Shown: in pieces, positions 26,390 through 47,100 of the stretch | How the letters are laid out: every line of letters begins with the position of its first letter | How positions within the stretch are numbered: position 1 is the first letter of the stretch | Virus record (IMG/VR): IMGVR_UViG_3300037606_000271 | Span: 1-53,304 of that record | DNA from: a virus | Lineage: Duplodnaviria > Caudoviricetes | Strand: one strand, 5' to 3' | Length of the DNA stretch: 53,304 nt | The notes under the pieces: model-generated | Database searches by the model: none | What the model saw: only the letters and a program-made list of their open reading frames with translations | Told to the model about the DNA's origin: nothing | Made by a program: the position numbers and the translations under genes

Positions 26390-26394
26390 AACAA

Positions 26395-26703
26395 ATGAAA
26401 ATAGTTGAAGGACGATTACCAGAACTTGTAAATCATGGATTTACTTTAATTACTGATGAATATTTAAAAACTCAATATTTAAAAGCTTATGGGTCTTTTG
26501 TAGATAATGAGCTTTGGCATTATAGAGGATCATATGTGTATAACTTAGGTTATTCAAGAAGAGGGCAATGTTATTACATATTAGCTTCTGATTTAGGGAT
26601 AGAAATCCTAGCCACTGAGCCCGATGGAGATGGGGCAGGTGTTATTTTAGATAATGTATTTATTGAGCTTTTTAACGCAAATTTAATTGAAACAAATGAA
26701 TAA
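26395..26703 (+). CDS. Hypothetical protein
   Basis: 102-aa ORF. Confidence 0.7.
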   Translation: MKIVEGRLPELVNHGFTLITDEYLKTQYLKAYGSFVDNELWHYRGSYVYNLGYSRRGQCYYILASDLGIEILATEPDGDGAGVILDNVFIELFNANLIETNE

Positions 26704-27277: not shown

Positions 27278-27295
27278 ACTACATAAATAAATATA

Positions 27296-27772
27296 ATGGA
27301 ATTTAAACAATACATTACAGAATCAAGTAGAACTGATTTTGATTTAAAGGAAAGTAACAATTTACATTGGCAATTAGGGCTATTCAATGAATTTGGTGAG
27401 CTTATAGGACCTATTAAAAAGTCTTTGTTTCCAGATAAAATAGTAGATGTAAACAGGTTAACAGATGAGCTAGGAGATGTAGCTTTTTATTTAGCAAAAG
27501 CATGTAGACTATTAGGCTTTGAAATTCCATTTTCTTATGCTTATGAAGAGCAAAATAACATTATTGATATTATTAATAGCTTTAATGAATCTTGGAGTAA
27601 GAAAGATTTAATGGGAATATTCTGCACATTACAGAACTTTTGTTACTTATATAATATAGATTTTGAAGAAGCTTTAGAAAGAAATATAGCAAAGTTAGAA
27701 GTAAGACATCCAAATGGTTTTAACATTAACAATCCAAAACATACAAAAGAAGAACAAGATGCAATCAAATAA
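27296..27772 (+). CDS. MazG-like nucleotide pyrophosphohydrolase
   Basis: LGLFNEFGEL...KK...DELGDVAFY and NIAKLEVRHPNGF. Confidence 0.85.
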   Translation: MEFKQYITESSRTDFDLKESNNLHWQLGLFNEFGELIGPIKKSLFPDKIVDVNRLTDELGDVAFYLAKACRLLGFEIPFSYAYEEQNNIIDIINSFNESWSKKDLMGIFCTLQNFCYLYNIDFEEALERNIAKLEVRHPNGFNINNPKHTKEEQDAIK

Positions 27773-28163
27773 CAAACAACTTATAGACAATCTTTGGGGT
27801 TTAATTACCGCCTTTATTACAAGTCTATTTTCAAAAAGAAGTGCTGAAGATAAAGTAACTATTAATAGCAGTAAACCTGAAATTAAAATATCAAGGGAAG
27901 AAGCAAGAATAGAAATTCAAAAGCTAAAAGAGCAATCTAAAATTAGAAAAAAGATTTATGTTGCTAAAAAAGCTATTAAAGTTGAAAATGTTAAAGTAGG
28001 TAACGCAGTGTATGTTCAACTTTATGATGAATCAAATGCACCATTAGCTGGTAAAAGCAAAGAAGTATTTCTTAGCTATGATGAATTTTTTATTACAACT
28101 GATAAAGGTGCCCACAGTTTCCATGATGTCTACACATATCATGGGAAACCCATAATGGCATAA
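27759..28163 (+). CDS. Hypothetical protein (last gene of the + arm)
   Basis: ORF 27714..28163; ATG 27759 preferred to minimise overlap; amphipathic N-terminal helix. Confidence 0.65.
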   Translation: MQSNNKQLIDNLWGLITAFITSLFSKRSAEDKVTINSSKPEIKISREEARIEIQKLKEQSKIRKKIYVAKKAIKVENVKVGNAVYVQLYDESNAPLAGKSKEVFLSYDEFFITTDKGAHSFHDVYTYHGKPIMA

Positions 28164-28243: not shown

Positions 28244-31200
28244 TTATCTACTGGATAAGTTGTATAATTCCATTATGTTAGTAGCATTTCTAATACCTTT
28301 AACTATAGGAATAATATCTATTGTCTTCTTTCCTATATAATAAGACCCATCTTGATATTTTCTAAAGGGATTTCCTTCAGTAAAAAATTGAATTGGGTCA
28401 AGTACTACAGGAAAAGTAATAAACTTTTCAATAGCTGAAACCGCTGCTGCTGGAGATCTAAGAATCTCTAGTGTTTGAACTGGGTTAAAAAAGAAAGACA
28501 TTTCTGTTATATGTCTGTTAGCTTGATAAGCTGTGAAAGCTAATAGTTGATTAGCTAAGTCTTCATCATCTTCATCAACTATATTTGTCAATAACAAGTA
28601 TATAGTAAAAGCTCCTAAAACAGTTGCTAATTCTCTCCTTATTCTTAAATAGTTTTGTCTTTGTACATCATCCATTTTAGCCCACTTCTCTTTAAAAGCT
28701 CCACTTAATAGCATTTCTTTATCTTCTCTAGCTAATTGTTTAGCGTCTTGATATATCCTTAGCATAGACCTGTACATTCCTTCTTGTTTAATAGTATTGC
28801 CGTCATCATCTAATCCTTCTTGGTAGTTATATTCCAGTTTACCATATCTACGATTACCGGGAGAAATAATAAATTTTCTAAATGTTTTTAACATTCTACC
28901 CAGTGCAAAATGCTGCATTCTACTTTGATCAACTTTATTGTAAATACCAAACAATCTTTGATTTACAGAATGAATTTTTAAAGATATTGCATCTACGTCA
29001 ACAGGGGAACCATCTAATTCAGTAACGTCTTCTGATATAGAAGACGAGAAATCTTTATGGTCTATGTGATCTAGTAAAGAAACTTTTTCACCTTTATATA
29101 ATACTTTTTTGTTTGCAATGATAGTAAGAGCCATTTTATACGCTCCAAAATGTTCACCTATATTATTAAGAGCATAAGGAGAAGATAATATTCTTTTTAT
29201 AGCAACACTTTCATTAGGACTTTCTTTAATTACTTGCTGCATAAATTCATCTCTAACATTAAATAACCTACCTAAACCTGTTAATGTAGAATCAACTGAA
29301 GGATTATCAAAAGCTCTTAATGACTCCATTAAATGAGTAGTATAAAAAGAATCAGCTTTTGCAAAAGATTCTTTATCGTATATTTTAGCAGCTTTTTCTT
29401 GAGCTATTGATGAATATGCTTGCAATACGTTAGCTGGTGGAGAATATATGTTATAACCCAAACCTAGCAAAGAAGTATAAGCACCTAAAAAATCTAATAT
29501 TTTACCTGTTTTACCTTCGTTCTTTTTAAACTTACCATATATATTAGCGTCAATGTAATCTGTAATTCGCTCAGCTTGATTACCACCAATTAAACCGGGA
29601 GAATCAAGTATTCTCCTTTTGTTAATAACACCTTCCATCATAAGAATAGAAGATTCTATATTTCGCATTTCAATATAATGATTAGCCATATATCCAAATG
29701 AATTTGTTAACATATGAATATCTGTAGACATATCATTTATATTTTCAATTTCATTGATAAAGTACACAGGCAATGTTCTTGTGTTACTATCATAAACTAT
29801 CTCCTCATCGTTAAACCTAAATTTATCCATAAAGTTTTGCTGTAATCCTTTTACATTACCTTCTTTTAATAATTGAGCTAAAGATTTAGTTAATTGAGGT
29901 AACTTATAAAGATGTGCTGGATTTAAAGGTAATTTAGAAGATTTGGCTTTAATTTTTAACACTTGATCTAAGTAACTTTTTTTAGAGTCAGGAAGTTTAT
30001 CATAAGAAAGATCTTCATATAAATCTTTTCTTGGTGTAGCTAAATCCTTAGTAAAAATTAAATCACCATTATTCTTAAAACTATTATCTAATATGTAGCT
30101 ACCTACACCATAAATAACAGTATCAATCTTTTCTTGTTCTCCTAAAGATAGTTTTTTATCATAAGTTTTAAGAAATTCTCTGGTTGAATAGTTATCAATA
30201 ACATAACCTTTTGATGAAATAAATTTGTATAAAACTTCTACTAAGTCACTTTTAGAAACAGAGAATATATCTCTTACAGATTGTTCTATTTGGTTCTTAA
30301 TTACTTGATCTAAATTAGGTAATCGTTCTTGATTATTTTTAAACCAATTATCTTTATTTTCTCTGTACATTTTACTTAATTCAGGATCTTCACCTAATTG
30401 CTTTTTTCTTTCATCATAGTTTTCAGATAAACGTAAACTTACTCTAATTTCACGCATAGCTTTTTTACGAGTTATTTCATATTCTGCAAAATTAATGTTT
30501 TCAGGGTTAACAAAGTATCTGCTTATATTACCTTCAGCGTCTTTTTGAATAAAATCTAAATCATTAAAATCTTCAATTTTAGATCTTAATCTTAATAATT
30601 CTTCAGCTTCATCTTTTGATTTATTAATAACTATTTGCCTTGATCTTTTATAATAAAGATCAAATAATTTTAATACATCATCATTGAGATTTGCTAAAGA
30701 TTGAATCCAAGCTTGAATACCTGATATATTTTTAACTTCTTCTAACAACTTTTTATACTCACCTTCTTTAAAATGAGTCATTAATTTAGTAAAAGGAGAC
30801 ATTAATCTTTCAGATAATTCAATTTCTTTGTTGCGAATTAACCCTTCATATCTTGCTTTTTTACTAACAATATCAGATACTTCTGTTTTAACTCTATCAG
30901 GCATTCTACGAACAGATTTTTCACTGTTAATGTCTTCTATAAATAAATTGAATTGAGCTACTTTTTCTTTAGCTCGTCTTAAGGCATCTACAATCTCTTC
31001 TGTTTTGTTTTCAGATTTATCTAAAGTGTTTAATATGTCAAGAGCATCATCTAAAGCTAAAGAAGTACTATTAAGAGCATTAACTGTGGCAGTTTTATAA
31101 TTACCAGCTGATTGAGGTAATTCTAATTGCTCTATTTTTTTAGTTATTTCTTTCTTAATTGTCTTATTAGTTTGATTTTTCTTGGCTTCATTTAATTCTT

Positions 31201-32047
31201 TTAACAAAGAATCTACTTGGTGACTAAGATCAAAATCTTTAAACTCAGAAGACTTAATTTCATATTGTACATTGCCTTTAAAATCATCACTCAACTTTAA
31301 CTCTTTGTTTTTAATTTTATCTTTTAAATCATTAGCAAAATCTTCTATTAACTTGTTGTCAAAAAATTTCAGGGCTTTTCTAATTAATGTTCTTATAGTT
31401 CTTAATATTCTGGAAGATGTAGATTCCATATCATTATCTAATAACACATCTCTAATTAATTTATCAACAACTTCTTTTCTAGCTAACTGATCTGTGTACC
31501 CTGGAACCTTAATATATTTATTATATATTTCATTAAATTCAGGATGTTGATCTACAATAGATAATATTCTTTTGAATGTAGGATCTTCTAACATAGTAGA
31601 CGTCATCATGTGAGACATTTCTTCTAATTGAGTAGCTTTATCTCCATTATTCCAAGCTATAATTTTATTAATAGGATCTGCTACACCTTGTACATCTAAA
31701 GCATAACCATTTTGCTGTTCAAATTGTTTTGAGTAAGTTGATACAGCTCCCCTTTTAACACCCATACTACTAAGTACAGACCATAAATTATCTATTACTA
31801 AATTAGAATTATCTAATACGTTTATTTTATAATCAGGTTCGCCATTCATGTCTTTAGGTAAATCCTCATTAGAAGATAATTTGCTCCATAGTTTGATAGA
31901 TTTTTCTTCAAATGTACCTGTAATTTTACTACTAAATTCTTTATTGTTATCTATAGTAAATTTAGACTTTTCAAAAAGTAAAGATGGTGCCCCGTTGGGG
32001 GCACTCACCTCTAATTTACCATTATTGTATTTTATTTGACAGCTCAT
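28244..32047 (-). CDS. Large virion cargo/ejection protein (1267 aa) with degenerate N-terminal zincin-like domain
   Basis: APNGAPSLL motif, EEMSH in place of HExxH, C-terminal hydrophobic helices; directly downstream of the virion RNAP as in crAss-like phages. Confidence 0.8.
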   Translation of the reverse strand: MSCQIKYNNGKLEVSAPNGAPSLLFEKSKFTIDNNKEFSSKITGTFEEKSIKLWSKLSSNEDLPKDMNGEPDYKINVLDNSNLVIDNLWSVLSSMGVKRGAVSTYSKQFEQQNGYALDVQGVADPINKIIAWNNGDKATQLEEMSHMMTSTMLEDPTFKRILSIVDQHPEFNEIYNKYIKVPGYTDQLARKEVVDKLIRDVLLDNDMESTSSRILRTIRTLIRKALKFFDNKLIEDFANDLKDKIKNKELKLSDDFKGNVQYEIKSSEFKDFDLSHQVDSLLKELNEAKKNQTNKTIKKEITKKIEQLELPQSAGNYKTATVNALNSTSLALDDALDILNTLDKSENKTEEIVDALRRAKEKVAQFNLFIEDINSEKSVRRMPDRVKTEVSDIVSKKARYEGLIRNKEIELSERLMSPFTKLMTHFKEGEYKKLLEEVKNISGIQAWIQSLANLNDDVLKLFDLYYKRSRQIVINKSKDEAEELLRLRSKIEDFNDLDFIQKDAEGNISRYFVNPENINFAEYEITRKKAMREIRVSLRLSENYDERKKQLGEDPELSKMYRENKDNWFKNNQERLPNLDQVIKNQIEQSVRDIFSVSKSDLVEVLYKFISSKGYVIDNYSTREFLKTYDKKLSLGEQEKIDTVIYGVGSYILDNSFKNNGDLIFTKDLATPRKDLYEDLSYDKLPDSKKSYLDQVLKIKAKSSKLPLNPAHLYKLPQLTKSLAQLLKEGNVKGLQQNFMDKFRFNDEEIVYDSNTRTLPVYFINEIENINDMSTDIHMLTNSFGYMANHYIEMRNIESSILMMEGVINKRRILDSPGLIGGNQAERITDYIDANIYGKFKKNEGKTGKILDFLGAYTSLLGLGYNIYSPPANVLQAYSSIAQEKAAKIYDKESFAKADSFYTTHLMESLRAFDNPSVDSTLTGLGRLFNVRDEFMQQVIKESPNESVAIKRILSSPYALNNIGEHFGAYKMALTIIANKKVLYKGEKVSLLDHIDHKDFSSSISEDVTELDGSPVDVDAISLKIHSVNQRLFGIYNKVDQSRMQHFALGRMLKTFRKFIISPGNRRYGKLEYNYQEGLDDDGNTIKQEGMYRSMLRIYQDAKQLAREDKEMLLSGAFKEKWAKMDDVQRQNYLRIRRELATVLGAFTIYLLLTNIVDEDDEDLANQLLAFTAYQANRHITEMSFFFNPVQTLEILRSPAAAVSAIEKFITFPVVLDPIQFFTEGNPFRKYQDGSYYIGKKTIDIIPIVKGIRNATNIMELYNLSSR

Positions 32048-35000
32048 TAATTACATTTTTTATTATTAGGATTCTCTTTATTAACATCTTCTACTTTGAC
32101 ATCAGTAGTTTTAGCTTTCTTTTTTACTTTTAGTTTAACTCGTGTAATTATTTCTTTTTCTAAATTGAATAATTTAAAATGCTTTCCTTGAACCATGTCA
32201 GTTTTACTAGCTTCAAACCTGAAAGCTATTTCACTAAATTTAATATCATAATTAATGTCACCATTGTTCATTTTTCTCTTTACGTAAATATCTCCATTGT
32301 TAGAATCATAATAATAATCTACATAACCATCAGGACCTTCTTTAGGTAGTCTAGCTATATAACTAGCATTTGCATTATTAGCTAAATGTTGCATTAAAAA
32401 AGTACTTATCATTAATTGATTATCGTAAGAAGATTCTCCATGTTCTTCAGACAAACTTAATTTAATACTGTTACTTTCATCTGAATAATAACCTAAATCA
32501 GCAAAAGCTTGCTGAGGGATTAACTTAGTATATCCAAATGGAGAGTAACCTAATCCATCTAAGTACAAAGCGTACCTAGCTAAATCTTGTACTAATTTAG
32601 GATCTTCTAAATATAAATAACTCATCATATCTTCTTTCATGTGTTCTTCTTCCGCAATCTCATTATTGTTAGACTTATAAAACATAAATTCTTGTGTACC
32701 TTCTTTATCTTTTTGAATAATAAAATCATTTAATAATTCACTATACTCAGGATGTTTAGAAAATCTTTCAATAATACCTTCTGTAATGCTTGTTTCATCA
32801 CCTGTTCCACTTACAAAAGCATTAAAAAACGCTTTATCTTCATTATTAAGAGTAGCTACAAAAGTTTTAAAGTCGTGAAGTATAATTTCTATTTCTCTTC
32901 CAGTAAGTTGATTGCCAGTAACCTTAGATTTAGCATTAGATATATGGTATATCATATTAAAGTAAACTCCTCTATTGTATGCAGGTATGCCTAAATTTTC
33001 CATGACTACCATCATGACGTCTTTTATTTTATTACCATCTTTAACTACTGATTTAGTAGAACGACTAAGGTGATCTTTAATAACTTCTCTAGCTGTATTA
33101 GCTTTTGTATTGTCATCAAGATCAATTAATAACTTAGTTAAATAATAATAAGGTTTAGTATCATCTAATAATAATTCTACAGCTCCTTCAAAAGCGTTTG
33201 GATCATTAATAGCGTCAATAATTTTAAGAATCATGGATATAGATTCTCCGTCAGAAGAACCAATACCATCTTCTGTGGATTTAGTAGCAACAGTTAATTT
33301 TCGCATATATTCACCATATTCTATATATCTACTAAAAGTAGTCATTACATCAAAAGCTTCTTTTTTATTATTCATAATCCATTCTTTAGGATCAGATATA
33401 CCATCTTGAGAAGATTTTAATAAATCACCCTTTTCAAAGTTAACTACAGATTTAACTGCTATTCTCTTTTTTTCTTTATCTGTAGCATCTCTTGGATCTC
33501 CATTATCATCTGTCATAATAAGATCCATCATGTCACCAAAAGCTTTGTCATTAGACATTCTTGTACCTCCATCAAATTTAAATCTTTTTGAATAGTAACG
33601 TAATGCTGGGTGGTTAATAAAATACATTGCAGTATTAAAATCTACACCAGCTGACAACATCGCAATTAATACATTAACAGTAGAAAAGTTAAGATTTAAT
33701 TTACCTGCGTGAGGATTTTTGGTGTTGTCTACAATAGCAGCTAACCAAAGAGATATATTTTGAGATCTAAATCTATAATTAAGCTCATCTAATATAATAC
33801 CTCGATTTGTAAAATCATTATATAAACCACTTTTATTTTCTTTTCTACCTTCCATCAAATTAAACTTAAAACCTACTTCATACGTTTCTGGTGTACCATC
33901 TTCTTTTAAAATAGCATTACCTTCTTCATCTTTAGATGGTTGAGAAGCAATTTTAAGTGTTTTGGCTTGTTGAAAAATACTAATAGTACTGTTAGCATTA
34001 GCTAATGGACCTACTAAAGATGTACCATCAAGAGCATTACTTCTTGATTCAACACTTCTTGAAGGCATACCCATCGTACCAATATTATCGTCAATGCCTA
34101 ATTTAATTTCTAAATCATTAAATATTCTATCAAAAATAGAAGATGGATTTAGTGTTTCAAATGCAGCATCAGAAGATGACATTAAAGCCCTGTAAGCATC
34201 AATTAACTGATTCTGTCTACCTACTTTACTATCTCCTCTAGGAACATGAAACGGCTCATCTTTGAGAACTTCTGTATAAGCTGTCATAATATTTTGAGTA
34301 GCAAGCTGTTCTCTTTTAGTTAAATCTTTAGATGCATCTTCTTGATATGTAGTGTTTAATTCGTAAATATATTTTAATAAAGGGTAATATCCCTTATTAG
34401 AATTTTTAGGTGCTAACATATCTAATTGAAACACATACATAGGGTTATCTCGAATCAATTCTTCTAATGTCATAAATCCTCTAACATCCCCAGCTTTCTT
34501 AGCGTTTTCTTTTATTTTATCAATAACTTTATCCATCATTTTAGGATCATCGTAGCCACGAGAAACAAATGAATAAAAGAAACCATACATTTTATCAATG
34601 TCAAAATCTAGTCCAGCTATGTCTGTAATCTCAGTAGGTAAGTAAACGGCAGAACCTATAGACGTAGGGATAAATCCTATAATCTTAATTGGTGCTGTAG
34701 AATACTTAGCTTCGTTTGGCGTTCTCCATATTAAACCTTTAAATACATCTTCTAGTTCTGGATTCTTTTTTATTAAATCTTCAATAGCTTTTCTATCAAG
34801 AGGTACATTAGGTTTAACATACTTGTATAATCTAGAATCATGAATAGGCATTAAAGCTTCTATGTAATCTATATTTTCTAATTTATTACCTTTACTATCT
34901 TCTTTAAACACAATCTTAGGTCTGGTATCTTCTGTAAATCCAGCAGATGATGCATTAACTAAACCTACACCTTGAAGTTTTTTAGGATTAGTAACTTGCT

Positions 35001-38000
35001 TACTGTAAATTGAATTAATAATTTGCTTAATCTTATGTGAATAAGCTGGAAAATCAAGAGGTGCTAAAGTTCTTAATTCATTATTTTCATCAGTAATAAT
35101 TTGAAGAGCTTCTAAGTAATTATTAGATAATCCTCTTTTAGAAACTTCTGCTTTTATTGTAGCTATAATACCTTTAAAATCTTTTACTTGATTAGTAACT
35201 TCAGCATAAGCTTCAATAATTTCTTGAATTTCTAATCTATTAATTTTTTCTAATAATTTAGCTCCAGTTAAAGTTTGAGAGCCTTGTATTTTAAGATTAC
35301 CTTTTTTATCTAATGAAGTGTATTTGGCTATTGTGTAAGATGCTTCAGGGTTTACATTAGCTGCCATATTCTTTCCTGCTTGTCTTGACAAAGACTTTTT
35401 ATTATCAAGAAAACCAGAAGGTACGTCATTTTGCTTACCGTAATCTTCATTTTTTACTGTTAATGCTGAAGGATTATATCTAGCAAATTGAGTTGGTTTT
35501 TTATCTTCATAAGTAAACTCTTTATTTAAGCCTTTAACAGAATCCCTCATACTTACAGAGATACCTTTTAACATAGTCAGTCTAGTTAAAGGATTAATAG
35601 CTCCATCAACTACTTCTTTAGCGTCATAGGATAGCCCTACAGGGATAATTCCAAGTTTGGTAGGTCTAATACCATATTGGTTAAATAATAGCATAGAATA
35701 GATGTTAAGCTGGTTCTCGTGCTTTTTTCTATTACTTAATTCTCCTTGTTTATAAGCAGTATCATATTTAAGCTTTTTAGTACCTGAATGAACAGCTACA
35801 AACCTTCCATCTACAATCTCATTATCATTGTTAACTTTCATTGATTTAAGATCATAAATACTAAAATTACCTTCTTTATCGTAGGTCAATAAATCAACTG
35901 TACCAGCAATACCCATTTTATCATTATGTAATAAAATTCCATTAGCTACTACTGTTTCTCCATTAGCTTCTAACTTAGCTTTTAATTCTTTTAAAGATTC
36001 TAAAAAAGATTTTACTAAAGATCTATTTGCTAAATTATAACTATTTAAATCTTTTAAATCATCACTAAAAAAATCTCTTACTAAGTTGTCTAAAGAAGTA
36101 CCTAATTTAGACGAAGACCTGAGATTAGTTTTAGTTCTGGCTAAAGACTCTAAATAACTATTTACTTTATCCACATTTTTAATTTTATAATTAGAAATAC
36201 TTTTAAAGCTGTTGTTGAAATAATCATCTAATAACCTAGTTAATTCATTAATATCTTCATTAGAAGATTTATAATCATTAGCTGCTTTTTGCGCAGGAGA
36301 CAATTGAAAACTGGAAGTTGCTCTACCATATAATTTACCTTTAGATTCAACATCATATGTATTGTTGTTTCCTGGGTCAGGTGTAGCTTCAGAAACGTCT
36401 TGAATTATATTAATTACAGAAGAAGGATTGTTAAACTTTCTACTAATAGTATTCAAATCTTTAGCTTGTAAAAACGAATCTGTGAGTACTTGTAAAACTT
36501 CTTTATCTGATAATAATTCAAAAATAAAATTAACAAATTTATTCCACCAATTAAGAGCTTCTCCTTTTTGAACTACTACTTGTTCTCCAATAGCTTGTAC
36601 AAGAGCTTCTTCACTACCCCAACGTTTAAGTCCTTCTTGTACAATAGGAGTATTTCTGAACATTGCAATGTAGTGATGAGCATACTCATGTGGTAAAGTA
36701 TCTTGTTTTTGATTTACAGCGTCAATTAATACTTTTTTAGCATCAATTATAGCTTGACCTACAATTTTACCACTTTCATTTTGATTAAAAACATTTTGCT
36801 GATCAGATTCAGGCTTTTGATTAGATTTTTGAATATCCTCAAAATTAAAATGTCGTAAACCTACGTTTTGAGAAAACTTATCATTATTAGTATTAAATGG
36901 GATGTAATTAGCAAAATCTCTAAGATCTTTTGCTCTACCCATTTTTAATTTAGCTTTAAAAATACTAATCCAATCTTGAAAACCATCATTATTTATAACA
37001 CCTAGTCGATTGTCTTTAGTTAAAAATAAATCAATGTCATAACCCCCTTCAATGCTACCAGTCCAAGTGAATGTTTCATTTTTAGTTCCTCCAAAACTTC
37101 GTACTTTTTTTAAGCTAGGATATTTCTTTTTAATCGCTTTAAACCATTCTGAATTATAAATTAAATTATCACTTATTCCTGTATATTTTTTATATATACC
37201 TGAAACAATCTGATCTCTCAAGTCTGGTACATAAGAAAACTCTTTTTCAGCAGCGCTTATTTCAGCATTTCTATTCTGCTGAATCAACGATAAATCAGCT
37301 TGTATTAAACTATAAGGGACAGTAAAATCTAAATCATGTAAAGTTTCTTTTTCTGATCTGTATATAGTACCTTGTTTACGCAAAGACAAACTACCTGTCA
37401 ATAAAATACCTAATTCTTGAAAATCCTTAACTATAGAATCAGCTTTAGGGTCTTCATTAATAGTTTGTTGATATTCTGTAAGTTGCTGATCACTGCTTAA
37501 AACTGTACCAAATTTCTTAAACTCACTATTAATTACATCTGAAGCAATATCATCTAATAAATCATTTACCTCAGTACTGTTTAATTTATTAGAACCTAGC
37601 AATTCTTTTATAAATCTTTTTAACCTATTAAGCTGATATTTAATTTGCTTTTCTAATTTAGAATTACCTTGTATAGACCAATATTCTGCCGATCTTCCTA
37701 ACTCTACTTTAGAAGGATTCTCAAAGTTATTTTCAATAGCAGCAGATATATAATCTACAACTATTAATTCTTTAATTTTATAATCATTTAAATCTGGACT
37801 TCTTTTCTTATACCTATCATATGCTTTAGCATATCCTTGTATGTTTTCAATTGAACTAACAAGATCAGTTCTTATTTTATTCTTTTTCCCTAGCATAGAA
37901 TACGCTACATAAGCTACTTCTTTAGTTAGTAATCTTAAAGGGTCGCTACTAGATTTTAATAATATAGTTTTATAAATTAAATCAGTAGTAGCTAATGCGT

Positions 38001-41000
38001 TAAATCCTGTTAAAGTTCTTAACTCATCAACTGTTTTAACATTAAAATTTAATTTTGTTAAAAAATCATTAAGCTTATCAAGTCTATTAATTACTTGATT
38101 AAATACGTCAGCATCATAAGAAGCTAAAATCTCGTCAACATATTCCAGGTTAATGTCAGGAAAAAGTTCTTTAAGTTTATTTCTTAATTTATTATCTAAA
38201 TCATAATCAAATTTAGAGCTATTAAATTTTAAACTAGTAGTAACAATATTTTGATCTAAATCTAATATACCACCTTGCTCAGCTTTAAGAGCTTCATTAG
38301 AAGAAAAAGTATCTATATACTTTCTATCATGATTATAAGATCTTTCTTTTTCAAAATTAGGAATAGTTTTTACAGAGTTTTCAGTAAACTCATACCCCAT
38401 TCTTTCTAAAAATAATCTGTATAAAGGATTGTAATAAGTATTAGGTTCTCCGTTTTTAAGAAATCTCATTCCATGCATTGGGTGCATTACCAACTCAGAG
38501 TCTTTTTTTTGAAAAGGCTTAACTTGAGTACCTTCTATCATAGAAAAATGAAATCCTTTTAAAGGATTAAAAAAAGATTCTTTTTGATTAGGAGTTAACA
38601 TTTGAAAATTAAACTCACCCTGTAACATTTTTAAATAAACAAATTCTTTAGTGTCATTCCATTCACCAAGACCTATTAAAATCTGTTTATACCTAAATGG
38701 ATCAATGTAAGATTGACCATCTGTTAAAGAAGAAGATTTAAAGATTTCTGTAATACCATCATACCTACCATCAATGCCAGCATAATGTTCTTCTAACTTT
38801 CTAATATGTTCTTGAAACCCTTCAGTAATCCCTTCAATGTCTTTAAAGCCTTGAATTACATAATTCTCTGATACAGTAGTTACATCACCAGAATAAGGAG
38901 AAGTATAATATGCTCCTACAAACAAAGGGGTTGTTGGTGACCATATTTGTTTAGTACGTTTATCGTAATTAGCTAATGTAGCTAATACATCTTTAGCTTG
39001 AATTTCTCTCTCTGATAAATTAGAAGTATCTCCTTTAAAAGCTTTTTCATAAAAGTTTGGGTGACCATTAAATGTAATAGCAGCAGATGGATATAGCACA
39101 GCATAGTTGTAAACAAAATCTCTAATTTCTTTTCTACCATAATTTTTTAGTGCTTCTCCTTCTTCTGTAGGTACAACAGTCCGCTTTAATACACCAGTCT
39201 TTTTTCTAAGATATTCATGAACTTTAAACACTCCTTCATCAATAAGGTATTGCTCATAATCCTTAGCTCTTTTAACCATTATATCTTTAATGAGCACTTT
39301 TAAATTAGTGTCACTCAAGTTTTCACCTATGTAAGCTTGTAGTTCAGGAAATATATGCAAATTAGAACCTAAAGATCCGTTATTTATTACACTTAATTCG
39401 TTTTTAGCAAGTTTTAACAAATCATCAATTATAGATTCATTTGGTGTGTACAATAAGGTACCATCTTCTAATCTATCTGTTTGACCATTCTTAATAAACT
39501 TTCTGTTGTATCTGATAGCTGTCATAGAGCCACTATCAGAGTGAATAGGTAATTCTATAGCTCTACGCTCATTAAACATAATTAGCTGGTTTATAACTAA
39601 TTGCTGCTTGTTCATATCAGAATAAGCAATTAGTTTTCTTTTTCCAGGAAGTCTAATACCATTAACTACTAGATAAGCAGCTTGCTTATTTGCTATAGCT
39701 TCTATTGTTTTGTTTTCATCATATAAAGGATCTTCTTTGTATATGTTTTCACCATTTTGTATTCTACTAATTTGTCTAGTAGTAAAATTAGAATTGTTAA
39801 ATTGATATACTTTTTCTCCTTTAGAATTTAAATGTGAGTTGTTCATTATACTTAATGAATTTTCACTTAACATTTGAGTGTAAAGTAAAAACGCAGAAGA
39901 AGGTTTACCATTAACTCCTAATAAATCACCATTAAAATTACCATCTTCGTCTTTTGATTTCAAAGTATTGTAAAGACCAAATACTTTTTCTTTAAAATCT
40001 TCTGTTGAAGGGTCACTACCTAAAGTGTAAGTAAACAATCCAAACTCTTCTAACGCTTCAGCTAATGCTTCACCATCTTTATCAAAAGCTTTATCTAACT
40101 TACCAATTAAAGAGTTTCTTTGTGCTCCATCGTATGTGCCATTAGCTATTAGTTTACCTTCTCTAGCTGTTCTTAACACATCAGAATAAATAGATTTATT
40201 ATTATTTTCATAATTAGATGGATTCATTTCACGAATCATCTCTCCATTTTTATTTGTAATTACTGTGTCAAAATAATCATATTTATAATTACTTGCAATT
40301 TTAGCCCATATAAGAGTTTGAAACTTTTGAGCTTCATTACTAGTCATATCTTCTGGAAACAATTCTGCAATTAAAGGATCTTTAGTTCTTAACTCATTTA
40401 TTTTTCTCATCATATTTCTAGATGTTCCACTATTACCTAATAGTTGAATCAGTCTTTTATACGCATAAGAAAATGTATGTACTTCTGGTAACCCCAGAAA
40501 ACCTTTAGCATCCACTAAGTTCCCTTTACTATCAAACTTTTTACGTTTAATGTTGTTTAAAGCAGATTTAAGTTCTTCAGATAAAGATTCGTATTGAGAA
40601 ATAGTGTTAATATCTTTCTGCCATTTTTCTACAGTAGTTTCTGAAGTCTGATCTGTAGTTAGTTCTAAATTAACGTAATACCCTCTTTGCTTAAAATCTT
40701 TAAGTATTTCAATAACTAAAGAATTTTGAAACACATCATTGTTTTCAAAAGATGCTGTGTAACGCAAAGCTTTAATAACATGAGCTAATGTTTGTTGACT
40801 ATCTGGCTCAGAAAGTTTTTGTATTTCTGTACCAAGCATACCAATTACAGTATTAGGATTTTCTTTACTTGGTATAGCAGTTAACGCATTCTTTGTTATA
40901 TCCGGGTTAAAAAACATTTCAGCAAACAACTCTTTCTTTTTTGTAGAACTAGTTAAACCCCGTTTAGAAACTTCTTGTTCAAATAACTGAGTAGCAAATT

Positions 41001-41154
41001 GCACTAAAGTTACTTTCATTTTATGAATTTGATTAGGACGTAACTTGGCGTTATTAGTTAACACATCCATTGTTAACTGTTTAATCTTTCTTCTAAGTTC
41101 TACTCTGTTAATAGCTTTAATTATTCCGTTTTTTGTTTTTACAAAACAGTACAT
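32047..41154 (-). CDS. Virion-packaged single-chain two-barrel RNA polymerase (phi14:2 gp66-like) with a large multi-domain insertion
   Basis: Catalytic GLDFDIDK (DFDID at 34594-34608) preceded by WRTPNEAKYS; TDGQSY, PLKG and VDNTKNP motifs. Confidence 0.9.
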   Translation of the reverse strand: MYCFVKTKNGIIKAINRVELRRKIKQLTMDVLTNNAKLRPNQIHKMKVTLVQFATQLFEQEVSKRGLTSSTKKKELFAEMFFNPDITKNALTAIPSKENPNTVIGMLGTEIQKLSEPDSQQTLAHVIKALRYTASFENNDVFQNSLVIEILKDFKQRGYYVNLELTTDQTSETTVEKWQKDINTISQYESLSEELKSALNNIKRKKFDSKGNLVDAKGFLGLPEVHTFSYAYKRLIQLLGNSGTSRNMMRKINELRTKDPLIAELFPEDMTSNEAQKFQTLIWAKIASNYKYDYFDTVITNKNGEMIREMNPSNYENNNKSIYSDVLRTAREGKLIANGTYDGAQRNSLIGKLDKAFDKDGEALAEALEEFGLFTYTLGSDPSTEDFKEKVFGLYNTLKSKDEDGNFNGDLLGVNGKPSSAFLLYTQMLSENSLSIMNNSHLNSKGEKVYQFNNSNFTTRQISRIQNGENIYKEDPLYDENKTIEAIANKQAAYLVVNGIRLPGKRKLIAYSDMNKQQLVINQLIMFNERRAIELPIHSDSGSMTAIRYNRKFIKNGQTDRLEDGTLLYTPNESIIDDLLKLAKNELSVINNGSLGSNLHIFPELQAYIGENLSDTNLKVLIKDIMVKRAKDYEQYLIDEGVFKVHEYLRKKTGVLKRTVVPTEEGEALKNYGRKEIRDFVYNYAVLYPSAAITFNGHPNFYEKAFKGDTSNLSEREIQAKDVLATLANYDKRTKQIWSPTTPLFVGAYYTSPYSGDVTTVSENYVIQGFKDIEGITEGFQEHIRKLEEHYAGIDGRYDGITEIFKSSSLTDGQSYIDPFRYKQILIGLGEWNDTKEFVYLKMLQGEFNFQMLTPNQKESFFNPLKGFHFSMIEGTQVKPFQKKDSELVMHPMHGMRFLKNGEPNTYYNPLYRLFLERMGYEFTENSVKTIPNFEKERSYNHDRKYIDTFSSNEALKAEQGGILDLDQNIVTTSLKFNSSKFDYDLDNKLRNKLKELFPDINLEYVDEILASYDADVFNQVINRLDKLNDFLTKLNFNVKTVDELRTLTGFNALATTDLIYKTILLKSSSDPLRLLTKEVAYVAYSMLGKKNKIRTDLVSSIENIQGYAKAYDRYKKRSPDLNDYKIKELIVVDYISAAIENNFENPSKVELGRSAEYWSIQGNSKLEKQIKYQLNRLKRFIKELLGSNKLNSTEVNDLLDDIASDVINSEFKKFGTVLSSDQQLTEYQQTINEDPKADSIVKDFQELGILLTGSLSLRKQGTIYRSEKETLHDLDFTVPYSLIQADLSLIQQNRNAEISAAEKEFSYVPDLRDQIVSGIYKKYTGISDNLIYNSEWFKAIKKKYPSLKKVRSFGGTKNETFTWTGSIEGGYDIDLFLTKDNRLGVINNDGFQDWISIFKAKLKMGRAKDLRDFANYIPFNTNNDKFSQNVGLRHFNFEDIQKSNQKPESDQQNVFNQNESGKIVGQAIIDAKKVLIDAVNQKQDTLPHEYAHHYIAMFRNTPIVQEGLKRWGSEEALVQAIGEQVVVQKGEALNWWNKFVNFIFELLSDKEVLQVLTDSFLQAKDLNTISRKFNNPSSVINIIQDVSEATPDPGNNNTYDVESKGKLYGRATSSFQLSPAQKAANDYKSSNEDINELTRLLDDYFNNSFKSISNYKIKNVDKVNSYLESLARTKTNLRSSSKLGTSLDNLVRDFFSDDLKDLNSYNLANRSLVKSFLESLKELKAKLEANGETVVANGILLHNDKMGIAGTVDLLTYDKEGNFSIYDLKSMKVNNDNEIVDGRFVAVHSGTKKLKYDTAYKQGELSNRKKHENQLNIYSMLLFNQYGIRPTKLGIIPVGLSYDAKEVVDGAINPLTRLTMLKGISVSMRDSVKGLNKEFTYEDKKPTQFARYNPSALTVKNEDYGKQNDVPSGFLDNKKSLSRQAGKNMAANVNPEASYTIAKYTSLDKKGNLKIQGSQTLTGAKLLEKINRLEIQEIIEAYAEVTNQVKDFKGIIATIKAEVSKRGLSNNYLEALQIITDENNELRTLAPLDFPAYSHKIKQIINSIYSKQVTNPKKLQGVGLVNASSAGFTEDTRPKIVFKEDSKGNKLENIDYIEALMPIHDSRLYKYVKPNVPLDRKAIEDLIKKNPELEDVFKGLIWRTPNEAKYSTAPIKIIGFIPTSIGSAVYLPTEITDIAGLDFDIDKMYGFFYSFVSRGYDDPKMMDKVIDKIKENAKKAGDVRGFMTLEELIRDNPMYVFQLDMLAPKNSNKGYYPLLKYIYELNTTYQEDASKDLTKREQLATQNIMTAYTEVLKDEPFHVPRGDSKVGRQNQLIDAYRALMSSSDAAFETLNPSSIFDRIFNDLEIKLGIDDNIGTMGMPSRSVESRSNALDGTSLVGPLANANSTISIFQQAKTLKIASQPSKDEEGNAILKEDGTPETYEVGFKFNLMEGRKENKSGLYNDFTNRGIILDELNYRFRSQNISLWLAAIVDNTKNPHAGKLNLNFSTVNVLIAMLSAGVDFNTAMYFINHPALRYYSKRFKFDGGTRMSNDKAFGDMMDLIMTDDNGDPRDATDKEKKRIAVKSVVNFEKGDLLKSSQDGISDPKEWIMNNKKEAFDVMTTFSRYIEYGEYMRKLTVATKSTEDGIGSSDGESISMILKIIDAINDPNAFEGAVELLLDDTKPYYYLTKLLIDLDDNTKANTAREVIKDHLSRSTKSVVKDGNKIKDVMMVVMENLGIPAYNRGVYFNMIYHISNAKSKVTGNQLTGREIEIILHDFKTFVATLNNEDKAFFNAFVSGTGDETSITEGIIERFSKHPEYSELLNDFIIQKDKEGTQEFMFYKSNNNEIAEEEHMKEDMMSYLYLEDPKLVQDLARYALYLDGLGYSPFGYTKLIPQQAFADLGYYSDESNSIKLSLSEEHGESSYDNQLMISTFLMQHLANNANASYIARLPKEGPDGYVDYYYDSNNGDIYVKRKMNNGDINYDIKFSEIAFRFEASKTDMVQGKHFKLFNLEKEIITRVKLKVKKKAKTTDVKVEDVNKENPNNKKCN

Positions 41155-41168
41155 ATTATATTATTTAT

Positions 41169-44100
41169 TTATGCGCAAGAAGGGTTAGTAATAGTTATAC
41201 CTAAACTAGCTAAATAAGCATCTCCAATTGGGTCATCCCCATCTAAAACATTAGTGTCAGATAATGAATTTACTAATGCTTGCCCACTGTCAGTTGTAGG
41301 TAAACCCAATTCTTTTAATTTTCCTAAAATTCTTGTGGGATCATTATTTAATTCTTCAATAAGCTCTTCGTTAGTTTTATTTAATCCATTTTTACGTAAT
41401 CTGTTACCATATCTACGTGCAAATTCTTTTATATTTTTACTATTATTTTTTTCATTATTAACTATTTCTAAAGTTTTACTAGGAGAAGTTTCTTTTTCAC
41501 TTACTTCTGTAGGAATAATGTCTACTGGTAAAAAAGGATTACCTTTATTTGTTTCTACTATAAGATCTTCTACATCTGTAAATATTTCTGTTATATCTGT
41601 AGGTACTTCTGATACAGAACTTTTTACATTTTGCTGCAATATAGCTTCTATTTCTTTAGCAACTTCTTCTCTCATTGCTATTTCTTCTAGAGTTAACACT
41701 TCCCCATTAATAATTTTATTAGCAATATTTTTAATCATTGACGAACTAACAACTCCAGTATCTACAAATACATCAAAATCTGATTTGGTTTTAGGTGTTA
41801 ATTTATTAATAGAATCATTTATAACAACCATAGAAAAGTCGTCTTCTTTAATATTATAAAAAATATCTTTAATTAACTGAGGATTAGTACTCATAACTTT
41901 TATCAATCTTCTTGAATCAGTTGTAAGACCTTTAAGTAGTACATGAGCCATTATTTTTTCATCTACTTTTAATTGAGTTGCTAACTCTTTTAAAGAATAA
42001 CTTACTACATCATCTAAAGATGTTGAAGTTAATAAATCATTAAATGCTATAAGTAATTCTTTTCCTCCTCTACGAGATAACACAATTCCATCTCCAAGAC
42101 CGTCTGATCCAATAATAATATGTTCACCTTTTTTTACTTTAATTATACCTACATGTAAATCATTAGCATTGTTTGCTACAAATCCTTTACTTCCTATAGC
42201 AGCAGGAGTACTGTTGTCTATATCTTCACCTACAATAACAATTAATTTACCATTTTTATCAACTTTATAAATAGGTGAATCACCTATTTGAAAATAAGAA
42301 TAAGTGTTATTACCTGTTTTCTTTACAAGAGATAAAGTAGTTCCTGCTGTTTCTGGATGAGATTTTAAAATTTCTTCTACAAGACTTTTGATTTCAGCTT
42401 TAGAAAATTTATCTAATTTAGATACTTTTTCAAGTATTTCATCTACTAAAGGTTTTGAATCTTTTAAAGAACCTAAACCATCAGCAACCATATACCATCC
42501 GTTATTAACATACACTCCATCTTGCCCTTTACTTCTACTATTATCATTTAAAGCTACATAACCATCTTCTTCTAAATTACCAGTTAAACTGTTATCAAAA
42601 GTTGAGACTTTATTAGGGGCTTTATTTGCAGAAGTATTTTGATTAGCTTTTTTATTAACTTTTTCTGAGGTAAATAACCTAGTAGGTGCCATTAATACTT
42701 TAGGTAATAAATTGCTTTCTATTCTATCTTTAGCTGTTTCATAAGTATCTTCTAAAGATACTTGAACAGGTCTTTCAAGAATATTATGATCATTCATAAA
42801 TTGACTTACGTAATGCATATAATAATTAAATTTATTAGAAGAAGGTACAGTTTTAATGATACCTGTGGGTTTTAAATCCATATCTAATACTTCAACTCTC
42901 ATATTCTCATTGTTTACACTTAATACTTTAAATATTTCTCCACTTTCTTGAGCATCATATAATTTATCTAAAGACTCTTGTTCATTTTTTTTATCAGATT
43001 CGTAGTATTCGTCAATAACAGAAGACATAGTAACACTATCAACAATAATATCTCCTTCATTAGGAGCGACTTTTATTTTTTTAGTATAAAGAAGTTTAAA
43101 TATATTACTAATTGACGGTTGAGATATTTTTGTATTTTCATCTACTTCTTTACTCCATTTCACAATGGCTCTAATATCATCTAAAGATATATCTTCTTTA
43201 AGTAATTCATCAACTAATGCTTGATATAATTCTGGATGATCTTTAAATTTAATTGCATCAGCTATAAAATAAGTACCTGATTCTTCACCATCAAGAAATA
43301 CTATTATGTTAGAAGTCTGATCATTAAGCTTTTCACCAGTATATATTTTATCTCCTATTTTAATAGTATATGGATCAACAACGCCGTTACCGTCACCAGA
43401 TGCATTATTAATAACTTTAATAAAAGGTATAACACCTGTGGGGATTACTTCTTCTAACCGTCTTTTAGTTGATGTTTTTAAGAAATCCCCTTTTTTAGCA
43501 TGTCTTACTTCTATCTTAGCTGTATGAGTTTTATCTTTAACAGCGTTGTTTAAAAATCGTTCTCTAAATTCTTTAAGCGGTCCTTTATCTACACCTCCTC
43601 CTTGAATTATACCAATAGTAATTCCGTTATGCTGAACTTTTAATACAGGTAAATTGTAATTAGTAATCTCATCACCTTCAACGTATTTTTTTAAATTATC
43701 TTCTTCTATAATTACTGTAAGTTCATCTTCTTTACTTAAATCTAATGTTTGGTAATACTCTAAGTCAATACCAAACTCTTCAGCAAATTTAGTATTTAGT
43801 AAAGGTTTGTCATTTTTATCTAACAACATTACTGTATATTTCCCTGCTGAGTTATTAGATGTAATAGCAAAGTTATAATCTTTAGTTAATTCTTCATACG
43901 TAACTGTTTGGTTAGAATTTTCATCGTACTTAGGAAATTTAAAAGAACCCCCTACAATAATTTTGTCTCCATTAGCTAAAATCTCTATTTCAGCATTACT
44001 TACTGTAACTATTCTGTAAGGCAAAGTATGTATTTCTAAATGATGTATTGTAGAATTAGGGTCAGTAGATTTAGTGTTATTTACTTTAGATTTTGCTTTA

Positions 44101-47100
44101 GTTGGTGTTAACATACTAGTAGATACGTTATTGATCTGCTCGCCTGTTATAAGCTCATGTAAGACACTTACAGCCTCACCATAAGCATTAGACTGTTTTC
44201 CAGTTAAAAGCTCTATAATGCGCTTTAAAATGTCTTTTAGAATAGATCCTAAAGAGTAGTTTGTGTTTGTCGCTACATTAGACAACGCATAAACAAAACC
44301 TCCATTACCAAACTCCATTAGCATTTCTCTTACATTACTTATTCCAAATTCTTTTAGTAATTCATCAGGTATTAAATTAAATATATCAATGAGTCTTTGG
44401 TCAGAAACTAAATCAGGATTATTCATTATCTCATTTCTCATTAATGTTTTAATCATGGTATAGGCTAAATACTTTTTTCTAAATGATTCTATTGTTCTAG
44501 CATTACCTATAAGATTAGTTTGAATACCTTCTTTAAATATTTTATCAGCTTTTTCTTTAAATCTTTTAGAATTTAAATAAATAGTGTTAGTTTTTTTATC
44601 ATATACACCATCTTTACCCGCACCTGTAAATACAATTTCCATATCCATACCTAACTTTTCTATTACGTCAATTAACAATTCTCTTAAAGGATCTTGTTTC
44701 ATTGACCGTAAAAAACTTACAACAGACTCATGTGCTATTAACTGTCCTTGCAGCTTATTAAATAAACGCAATGCTTTAATACTTTGCTCACCATTAAGTT
44801 GACTTCTATTAAATATTTCATCCAAGATTAATTTATAATTACCATCATTATCTTTTGCTTCATCATGCAAAGCTTCTAACTCATCTAAATTAAGCTTACT
44901 AAGGTGATGCTCTTCATTAGGGTTTTTTGACGTAGGTGAAGTATTGGTTCCTTCCAAATTTTTAATATAATCTTTTATAACTGTAGAAGAAGTGTATTTA
45001 GAATTGCGTAAAGTATTGCCAATTTTATCACTGCTTTTAGAATTTTTTAGTTCTAATGTAGTAATTACTTTACCTTTTTCTTTTTGAGGTTTACCATCTA
45101 CCCCAATTAAAGGTACTTCAACTAGCTCATCACCTAACTGTTTAGCTATAATATTTAACAGCTCTCTACTTTTTGGATCGGTTTTTTCTTTTAATCTATC
45201 AAAAGCTTTTACTAAAACATACTTTTCTACTTCTTCTTTAGAAACACCTGCGGCGACAGCTATTTCATCTGCCCCTTCAAATATCTCAAAGTCTCCATTA
45301 TTACTATTTTCAGTAAAAGGGTTTACTTCATAATCAACTTCAGGAAGATCTGGACCCAAATCTAAATCTTCCATTTCCAATATAGCGTTTTCCTGTTGAG
45401 CTTTAAATTGATTAAACAAAGCTTGACCAATTTGGGCTACTCCAGGAATACCATCAATAGCATCTACTTGATCTATTTCAAATGTTTTTGCCCCTTGTGC
45501 TTTTTCTAAAGATGTTAACTTTTGTTGATAAGATTTTACTATAGCTTCTTTAGTTTCTTTTTGTTGAGGAGTTTTATCTGGAAGATTTAACGCTTGAGTT
45601 AAACTTAATTTAGTCATTATGTATTCAGTATCTTTTCCAAATACCGGGTCAGCTTTTAATGCTTTTTGAGCAACTGCTACTATTTCTCTAGCTTCTTCAA
45701 ACTCTAATTCTGTAGCTTTTTTTACTACTTTCTTTATGGTAGTAGCTGGGTCATCTCCTTCATTTTTTGAATCGTCTGCTGTTTTACCTAATTGTTGATC
45801 TTGGAGATCAGAAGAGTTTTTAGCAGCTTCAATAGCTTTACTATCAGTGGCTAGTAGTTCAGCTTTATCTTTTTTATCAGGATCTTTTTTTAGCATAGAA
45901 GCTATGTACCCAGGAGAAGCAAAAGCTAATCCACCAATACTACCTTGAACAACTGATTCCCAAAATTCTTTATCTCCAGTAGCGTTTAAAAAGGATTGTA
46001 TTAAACTCTCATCTCTACTTGCTTGCGCGTTTTTAGAAAATGTATATTGTAAACCTTCTTCTAAACCTTCTGAAGCTGAGTCAAAAGCAATTAATTGTAA
46101 AGATTCTTTAATTTTACTATTCATTTTAGTTAGGGAAGGTCCAGCACCTTTAAACATAGACAATAACTTAGTGTATTGTAACATGTCTATAGCTGCTAAT
46201 GACATACCATATCTATAGTTTTTACTAGCTGCTTTAGAAGCAATTTCTTTATGTTCTTCTTCTGATCTTTCCGGGTGAAGTTTCCTACTTCTAGCATATA
46301 CTATATCATAAGTGTCTTTAGATTCACCTAATGTTTCTGCGTTTCTAGATATTACTGATGCAAAAGCTGCTTGAGTAAAACGATCTGATGTACCTAAAGT
46401 TGCGTCAACTTTTATATAATTATCTACTGCACCTCTAATAGATTCTCTTCTTTCCTGAAGTAATTGATTATAATCAACAGAAGCTTTTTCACTATCAGCT
46501 TTTTCTAATAAAGCTAATTCGTCATCAATTTGATTTCGAGTTGGGCCTTTCTTTTTCTTATTGCTTTTTATTATTTTATATAAATCCTCATAAGCTTCTT
46601 TTTGAGCTTTTTGATAAACTTCTTTAAGTTCTTTAGGTGTAGCTGCTTTTTGACCGGATCTTTTTAACTGCTCTTCAAAAACATCAGCTGCTTCTTTACC
46701 AATAACACCAGACTCTCTCCTAGCCAGGAATAAAGAATCTCTTTGATCGGGAGTATCAATAATAGCATTAGCTACTTTGTCCATTAAAGTAGCTCCTTTT
46801 TCTCCATGTTTTGCGCGAGCATTAGCCACTGCTTGTTTAGTTAAACTTTCAGTTTTTTCTCTAGCTATTTTTTCTAATCCATCATCACTTAATTTTATAG
46901 CTTGATTAAATAAACCATCGGAAACACCTTCTCCTAATTTATCTGTAAATCCTTTTGTTGATCTAAGTTTGATTAAATCATCTACATTAGCTTCAAAAAC
47001 ATCTCCTAATTGTTTTCTCAAATTTCTTTTTAAAGAACCTTGTACAACCCCTTTAGCTAATGCTCCAGGAACTTTAGCTATTAAACCAGCACCTAATGAT

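Follow-up and report, generated by a model that had tools for sequence, protein, structure and literature searches.

We examined the 53,304 nucleotides (nt) of IMG/VR virus record IMGVR_UViG_3300037606_000271 (positions 1 to 53,304; hereafter the window), which come from a crAss-like phage, and found that three giant proteins of its virion block carry cysteines only at the termini which face one another. A head-to-tail topology in which each of these proteins is joined to the next is well supported by comparative data from related genomes, and we think it on balance probable that the joints are Cys-Cys (disulfide) links holding the three proteins in one thread for packaging and ejection. The plus strand of the window carries the replication and early genes, while the minus-strand virion block consists of a muzzle gene followed by five open reading frames (ORFs) of 476, 724, 2150, 3035 and 1267 amino acids (aa). 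The last three would form the chain, with these features:

41169..47621, minus strand: 2150-aa giant, proposed first chain member, in the position of crAss001 gp47; its sole Cys is residue 2149
41175..41177, minus strand: codon TGC of Cys2149, the penultimate residue of the 2150-aa protein
41146..41148, minus strand: codon TGT of Cys3 of the RNA polymerase (RNAP), an N-terminal Cys shared with gp50-like ORFs
32047..41154, minus strand: 3035-aa virion RNAP, proposed middle chain member, of the crAss001 gp50 / phi14:2 gp66 family; Cys only at residues 3 and 3034
34594..34608, minus strand: DFDID catalytic motif of the RNAP, residues 2183-2187
32053..32055, minus strand: codon TGT of Cys3034, the penultimate residue of the RNAP, a C-terminal Cys shared with gp50-like ORFs
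32039..32041, minus strand: codon TGT of Cys3 of the 1267-aa protein, an N-terminal Cys shared with its family
28244..32047, minus strand: 1267-aa protein, proposed last chain member, of the crAss001 gp49 family; its sole Cys is residue 3

A scripted count returned 4 Cys in the 7,652 aa of the five cargo ORFs (0, 0, 1, 2 and 1 in the order given above), in exact agreement with a by-eye reading in the original prediction, made from the letters of the window, that Cys are confined to four terminal sites. The termini read NPSCA-stop in the 2150-aa protein, MYC and NKKCN-stop in the RNAP and MSC in the 1267-aa protein; each C-terminal Cys thus faces the N-terminal Cys of the next product, and the two free outer ends have none, as that prediction had also held. 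Extra internal Cys, which it had named as an observation that would speak against it, were not found in the remaining 7,640 residues of the window cargo proteins. The 25 other window ORFs of at least 150 aa contain 85 Cys in 6,468 aa (1.31%), so that the frequency in the cargo proteins is far below that of the proteome. Under uniform placement, P is 5.7e-13 for each of the four inner termini to have one Cys no more than 3 residues away; for the other 7,640 residues to be free of Cys at the 1.31% background, P is about 1e-44. Both values are post hoc. Both in the window and in its relatives, Cys lie within 10 residues of the inner termini and are absent from the outer ones.

The four Cys codons lie no more than 10 nt from start or stop codons at two tight junctions, at one of which the start of the 1267-aa gene overlaps the RNAP stop by one base. 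The outermost of them, TGC at 41175-41177 and TGT at 32039-32041, delimit the region (32039-41177) to which the original prediction referred. No earlier start is possible for the RNAP and the 1267-aa protein than their N-terminal ATGs, which follow a stop by 2 and 1 in-frame codons. From the window sequence alone downstream starts (residue 29 or 14) are possible; an M-x(1-5)-C terminus is conserved in the homologues.

Terminal cysteines and gene fusions across crAss-like phages

Conservation in homologues had been proposed as a check on the significance of the terminal Cys, and they are indeed kept in 77 viral loci, in 111 representatives of the gp49 family and in 15 annotated genomes. A HMMER search with the 1267-aa protein gave 1,183 proteins at E ≤ 1e-3, of which we examined the best 150, all representatives of 50%-identity clusters and chosen without regard to Cys; 111 of the 150 were full-length-like (beginning with M and 1,100-3,000 aa long). 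A Cys was present at residue 2-7 in 99/111 of these and was the only Cys of the protein in 67/111, and the last 10 residues contained a Cys in 0/111. 

The 77 loci were retrieved from IMG/VR with an RNAP-core profile and fell into 34 clusters at 60% identity. Their ORFs of at least 600 aa were labelled by homology, with the first 10 aa counted as the N-end and the last 10 aa as the C-end. The gp47-like ORFs had a C-terminal Cys in 39/39 cases (14/14 clusters) and an N-terminal Cys in 0/1; the gp50-like ORFs had an N-terminal Cys in 64/71 and a C-terminal Cys in 73/77; and the gp49-like ORFs had an N-terminal Cys in 63/65 and a C-terminal Cys in 0/64. Among unrelated ORFs at the same loci, which served as background, 6/50 had a Cys in the first ten residues and 11/50 in the last ten, and the chance figures are 6e-10 for the gp47 C-ends and 2e-21 for the gp49 N-ends. 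Unlabelled ORFs were omitted from these counts, though several fit the pattern, among them the ORFs which follow the RNAP in L066 (Cys4), L070 (Cys3) and L079 (Cys4).

The 15 annotated genomes comprise members of Steigviridae, Intestiviridae and Suoliviridae together with Flavobacterium phage Fpv1 and Dulem virus 41, two records which are not filed under Crassvirales, yet fit the pattern. Cys were found on both sides at 19/20 visible internal boundaries with the starts and stops as annotated. The 20th, at crAss002 gp33, fits if the protein starts at the M-S-C of annotated residues 33-35; as this matches the conserved N-terminus, the start was probably called 32 codons too early. The gene lies at 15088-27825 of crAss002 (L085). 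A similar mis-call occurs in our own ORF calls for L034 and L072, where the Cys is at residue 21 or 22. Outer ends in the annotated genomes were without Cys, at 0/15 N-ends of the first member and 0/14 C-ends of the last. In phi14:2, the phage whose RNAP was crystallised, the 5,398 aa contain only four Cys, at positions which correspond to those of the window.

The four nearest relatives of the window RNAP (P0157-P0160) have exactly two Cys each, one per end, and across 38 clusters of RNAP relatives Cys were found at both ends in 15, at the N-end only in 12, at the C-end only in 9 and at neither in 2. The four Cys positions are conserved at 15-30% sequence identity, at residues 2-7 from the N-terminus and 0-9 from the C-terminus, and the two outer ends never carry Cys. 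Internal Cys in the relatives amount to 0.08-0.19%. It should also be noted that many members of the gp49 family (P0008-P0154) have a conserved motif of the type P-E-E-x-L-K-[FY]-[FY] in their final ~10 residues, unlike the window 1267-aa protein, which ends in ELYNLSSR. Under table 11, 38 and 78 stops fall in frame within the giant coding sequences annotated in cr4_1 (L004) and cr125_1 (L091), which indicates reassignment of a stop codon in these phages; they too keep the terminal-Cys pattern.

The array contains as many Cys pairs as it has ORF boundaries. Where gp47 and gp50 are fused and gp49 is separate (L044, L064, L076, L078, L080, Fpv1 and Suoliviridae, with cr4_1, cr1_1 and cr125_1 listed), the fused giant has no N-terminal Cys and keeps the C-terminal one, facing Cys 3-5 of gp49. 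Where gp50 and gp49 are fused and gp47 is separate (P0039, P0072, L052 and Intestiviridae, with prototype crAssphage, cr3_1 and cr8_1 listed), only the N-terminal Cys is left, facing the C-terminal Cys of gp47. Giants which appear to hold everything in one ORF contain zero Cys in 10/12 cases of 3,798-5,199 aa; two of the zero-Cys giants, P0153 and P0102, are demonstrably gp47+gp50+gp49, and the cases with all genes fused have no Cys in 4,432-5,199 aa. A search for the locus of another zero-Cys giant, P0028, found none. That exactly the two junction Cys vanish on fusion suggests that a peptide bond replaces the Cys pair, and since the lost pair always consists of an upstream C-end and a downstream N-end, this argues against an RNAP which closes on itself and against other pairings.

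Gene order leads in the same direction. A gp47-like gene which is convergent with gp49 on the opposite strand, as seen in crAss001, cr128_1, DAC15 and many IMG/VR loci, encodes a protein that nevertheless has its C-terminal Cys. The pattern is kept when gp47 and the RNAP are not adjacent, indicating a property of the proteins and not of gene-junction DNA, and an artefact of junction DNA was rejected on this ground. False boundaries carry no such Cys. The RNAP gene is split just before the catalytic motif (DFDVDK) in L023, L033 and L036, with no Cys on either side; the L023 insert (11506-12426, roughly 0.9 kb), the one of the three that was scanned, codes for an HNH endonuclease (Pfam HNH_3, E 6e-8), and in the intact relative L027 the reading frame runs on across the L023 split site. 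A simple break in the RNAP gene of L056 likewise has no Cys on either side. We regard the covariation of Cys with gene fusion as the decisive argument, at the level of comparative sequence, for pairing over four separate features. The head-to-tail topology put forward in the original prediction is supported by the conserved positions, the clean outer ends, the convergent gene order and the loss of junction Cys on fusion.

The cargo proteins and their neighbours in the window

The 3035-aa protein is, judged by its sequence, a crassvirus virion RNAP. It matches crAss001 gp50 (phmmer E 3.4e-26), and a profile in which it was included (A1) matches PDB 6VR4 (6vr4_A, phi14:2 gp66) at E 4.3e-26; its DFDID motif has the DFDxD form known from the catalytic site of two-barrel polymerase cores, and residues D2183, D2185 and D2187 are invariant across the 24 sequences of alignment A2. 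The label of RNAP which it had been given by eye was therefore correct. Packaging in the virion and injection are suggested by its position after the muzzle gene and by published crAss001 and phi14:2 proteomics. It is about 600-850 aa longer than its known counterparts, with extra modules. Those at residues about 1021-1440 and 1450-1570 have 44-75% identity to otherwise unrelated giants, where they stand at varying positions, and some of these giants have helicase, PDDEXK, ParB-like, PF18760 or DUF1768 domains. RNAP residues 1673-1837 match a PHROG 'exonuclease', and a gp47 C-terminal profile matches residues 1522-1878 (E 9e-24). These similarities give the cargo proteins the look of shuffled modules. 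A search of viral contigs with the RNAP sequence on its own returned no related contig.

The 1267-aa protein matches crAss001 gp49 (phmmer E 1.5e-37; tblastn 27% identity over residues 672-1223, in the C-terminal half, E 8e-38) and had no match in a PDB sequence search. An AlphaFold2 model of its residues 1-400 (mean predicted local distance difference test score, pLDDT, 83.7) has residues 1-4 as coil followed by a beta-hairpin at 5-15, so that Cys3 is predicted to sit in the coil tip. The chain termini are free.

The 2150-aa protein is a giant flanked by the small cargo genes on one side and the RNAP on the other, and it has Cys at its C-end only, as gp47-like proteins do. Its sole Pfam match is a PP2C-type phosphatase domain at residues 1706-1850 (PP2C_2, E 1.3e-6, above the curated cut-off), in the giant where other crAss-like phages carry a zincin protease annotation. 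It had no match to three gp47 proteins by phmmer, a gp47 C-terminal profile reached only E 5 against it, and no relatives were found by tblastn on annotated phages, by a word-indexed protein search (which returned only the protein itself) or by a metagenome contig scan. Membership of the family of gp47 and phi14:2 gp65 (zincin-protease) was rejected, as neither homology nor a zincin-like domain was detected, and the protein is filed as a positional counterpart of gp47 and not as a member.

The remaining members of the virion block are the following:

51231..53066, minus strand: muzzle protein, C-terminal part (611 aa, 5 Cys; Pfam PF25731 crAss_MUZ, E 2.1e-18; PHROG 15100 virion structural protein, E 1.4e-28), given as context for the start of the cargo block; its ORF is open to the window end at 53303
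49801..51231, minus strand: 476-aa cargo protein, 0 Cys, in the position of cargo protein C1/C2
47624..49798, minus strand: 724-aa cargo protein, 0 Cys, taken from the ORF and its Cys count

Pfam and PHROG scans gave no family for the 476-aa and 724-aa proteins. Several small cargo proteins of Intestiviridae do have a Cys near the C-end, followed by basic residues: prototype crAssphage gp47 (L084 3870-6443) at position -1, crAss002 gp30 (L085 4393-6066) at -7 and cr3_1 gp20 (L089 4886-5785) at -9. The protein which comes next has no N-terminal Cys; cr8_1 gp90 has Cys5. These Cys may represent a further link to some other partner; the 476-aa and 724-aa proteins of the window have no such C-end Cys. 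On the plus strand, in the early and replication region, there are three homing-endonuclease-like ORFs (6569-7516, 8110-8826 and 9941-10783), two GIY-YIG and one LAGLIDADG. No close DNA relatives of the window were found among annotated phages.

Proposed linkage into one thread and its rivals

In the mechanism we propose, the three giants would be packaged cargo which is injected into the host, and selection would have stripped them of Cys, as in other ejected phage proteins, while keeping one thiol per inner terminus. One disulfide would join Cys2149 of the 2150-aa protein with Cys3 of the RNAP, and another Cys3034 of the RNAP with Cys3 of the 1267-aa protein. With Cys only 0-9 residues from the ends, the product would be a thread of about 6,450 residues with hardly any branching, in the order first member, RNAP, last member. 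Such a thread could be loaded 1:1:1 and drawn in order, partly unfolded, through the tail channel, for which its lack of branches would suit it, this channel in crAss001 being narrower than 50 Å according to the available text of PMC10172136. Thiol reductants of the host cytoplasm would then cut both bonds and separate the thread into its parts, and lineages which fuse the genes would reach an equal outcome by peptide bond. The topology comes from the comparisons above; the disulfide chemistry, the time of its formation, the direction of ejection, the reductive release and a purpose in stoichiometry or ordering are what we infer from it. 

A more general version is that crAss-like phages deliver their transcription and effector machinery as one thread, either as a single Cys-free giant or as chains stitched after translation by terminal disulfides which act as a redox fuse; here we hold the chances to be even. 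Order and stoichiometry would be held in capsid and tail until the bonds break in the host cytoplasm, where the polymerase would be released and perhaps activated. Genes annotated as thioredoxin or thiol-disulfide isomerase occur near the block in L002 (cr128_1; 7590-7835) and L092 (cr8_1; 30957-31226), and in prototype crAssphage (L084) at 29260-29538 and 30258-30527, and no redox-family Pfam match was found among 40 scanned plus-strand ORFs of the window. A role for such enzymes in making or breaking the links is pure speculation.

Several points weigh against a disulfide-linked thread. The bond between the cargo proteins is predicted from sequence comparison, and virions assemble in a reducing cytoplasm, often that of strict anaerobes, which bears on when and how a disulfide could form. 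If the fused forms are later cleaved, which the authors of the gp66 work suggest, linkage is unneeded after delivery and may be so before it too. As no relatives of the 2150-aa protein were found, its C-terminal Cys is placed in the pattern by position and analogy. N-terminal Cys is missing from 12/111 gp49 representatives, of which six are N-truncated or fusion fragments and six are without explanation; P0187, a relative in the RNAP modules, has Cys at neither end and 3 internal Cys; and some lineages are rich in internal Cys, with 30 in the RNAP of L042 and 23 in that of L039. Moreover, alignments A2-A4, in which the terminal Cys are 'invariant', were built from sequences chosen for carrying Cys, so that only the count of 111 representatives and that of the 77 loci are unbiased. 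A complex prediction in which the C-terminal 300 aa of the RNAP were paired with the N-terminal 300 aa of the 1267-aa protein (alignments A2 and A3) gave a score of 0.04 (mark 0.32) and speaks neither for nor against the bond.

The closest competitor keeps the topology and changes the chemistry: the facing thiols would share a metal ion or sit in a non-covalent interface of the termini, such as strand pairing with an N-terminal hairpin. All of the topological evidence fits this equally well, a bridge needing no oxidation would suit a reducing, anaerobic cell, and the beta-hairpin modelled directly after Cys3 of the 1267-aa protein would be at hand. Against this, each terminus offers one thiol and no second conserved ligand is found nearby (after the N-terminal Cys, His peaks at 16/99 at a single position), which is enough for a disulfide and less than a metal site needs, a two-ligand metal site being unusual. 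The C-terminal contexts vary freely (RCNS, DCLGV, KKCN, KLC), and as Cys is the sole invariant residue of a variable tail, chemistry is indicated rather than shape. We therefore judge a metal or non-covalent joint to be unlikely. Somewhat more doubtful still is the suggestion that the terminal Cys bind another virion component (portal, capsid lining or small cargo) or other copies of the same protein, or serve as a packaging tag. Many inter-subunit disulfides occur elsewhere in the crAss001 virion, and the small cargo proteins of Intestiviridae end in Cys without an obvious facing partner. This would leave unexplained both the Cys-free outer ends (0/15 and 0/14 in annotated genomes; gp49 C-ends 0/64 and 0/111) and the joint loss of exactly two junction Cys on fusion, and the Cys-free all-in-one giants would have neither tag nor anchor, for which reason a packaging tag was rejected.

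Intein-type and N-terminal-nucleophile reactions use a Cys beside a chain end as nucleophile, and fused and split forms interchange freely in evolution, from which it could be argued that the Cys are reactive groups for ligation into a true polyprotein (by thioester-type transfer) or for self-cleavage, and not a reversible tether. We find this improbable, as the distance of the Cys from the end is not fixed and no intein-like motifs accompany it. On a reducing gel, as described in the methods of PMC6235969, crAss001 virion proteins run as bands of about 150 and 270 kDa, as expected for the separate chains, which argues that the bulk is not peptide-ligated and that any link is reducible and not a peptide bond; this leaves a band above 300 kDa on the same gel unaccounted for. 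Finally, the window codons lie so near to start and stop codons at the two tight junctions that chance, or a by-product at nucleotide level of start, stop and coupling signals, might be considered. We give it almost no credence, given that the Cys are kept with convergent, non-adjacent gp47 and over 34 clusters and 111 representatives, with P values of 5.7e-13, 6e-10 and 2e-21. An N-terminal Cys of lipoprotein type was also rejected, since a signal peptide or lipobox cannot precede a Cys at residue 3. Among these readings, the disulfide-linked thread is the one we favour.

Crassviruses are the most abundant viruses of the human gut, and a conserved thiol pair at each protein boundary provides a concrete physical model of how they load, order and pass very large cargo through a channel of less than 50 Å. 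This model would also account for the free fusion and fission of genes in the cargo block. It yields a rule for annotation: within the block a Cys marks a real protein end and is missing at boundaries which stem from introns, frameshifts or recoded stops. The rule also exposes mis-called starts such as those of crAss002 gp33, L034 and L072. If the model is true, a 'cysteine code' would give the chain order in any crAss-like genome, including shuffled modular cargo of unknown function: Cys at the C-end only would mark the first member, at both ends a middle member, at the N-end only the last member and at none an all-in-one protein.

Comparison with known systems

The crassvirus cargo and virion RNAP system is known; the pairing of terminal Cys and the way in which it alternates with gene fusion seem to be new. 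Full-text literature searches, which extended to neither supplements, extended-data tables nor subscription journals, returned no description of Cys in crassvirus cargo proteins, and the word 'cysteine' occurs 0 times in the main text of PMC10172136, the gp66 preprint (10.1101/2020.03.07.982082), PMC7886860 and PMC10136315. Linkage through terminal Cys would thus be a principle undescribed for phage ejection proteins in the searchable literature. The fusion of three genes in some phages is known, and was read as a polyprotein which is 'likely cleaved' (10.1101/2020.03.07.982082).

The nearest counterparts are gp47, gp50 and gp49 of crAss001 and gp65, gp66 and gp67 of phi14:2. The window RNAP is homologous to gp50/gp66 and the 1267-aa protein to gp49, and as in crAss001 the block follows a muzzle gene, while the first member differs in having a PP2C-like domain and no detectable gp47 similarity, and the RNAP is longer. 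The three crAss001 proteins have masses of 262.5, 276.9 and 154.5 kDa (sum about 694 kDa) in the text available of PMC10172136.

The giant packaged RNAPs of N4-like phages and their companions (N4 gp50 virion RNAP, DEV gp71-gp73) resemble the window proteins in being almost free of Cys. That proteins ejected in the N4 manner are depleted of Cys, which the original prediction had stated as known, is in print: the accessible text of PMC11445570 describes the ejected proteins of Schitoviridae as nearly Cys-free, with 0.00075% Cys in gp71 homologues vs 0.865% proteome-wide, and attributes this to passage through the periplasm. In those phages Cys is simply absent, and no terminal Cys are described in that text, whereas here there is one Cys per inner terminus, tracking ORF boundaries and often the sole Cys of a protein of 1,300-4,600 aa.

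Structural disulfides of phage virions indicate that crassvirus particles make use of inter-subunit Cys-Cys bonds. As far as the available sections of the two papers go, these occur in the tail and portal vertex of crAss001 virions (tail rings, hubs and gp57; PMC10172136) and in siphovirus tail tubes (PMC13576161). Such bonds stabilise a fixed shell or tail, whereas the proposed ones would join mobile cargo which is meant to separate. A functional analogy (PMC6899712, abstract) is offered by two-chain toxins of the diphtheria and clostridial neurotoxin type, in which a disulfide holds the chains together in translocation and is reduced in the target cytosol, freeing the active chain. These toxins have no sequence relationship to the cargo proteins, and they consist of one nicked polypeptide with a bond which is not terminus-to-terminus, in contrast to the proposed thread, in which the products of separate genes, three in number, would be joined end-to-end and delivered by a phage tail.

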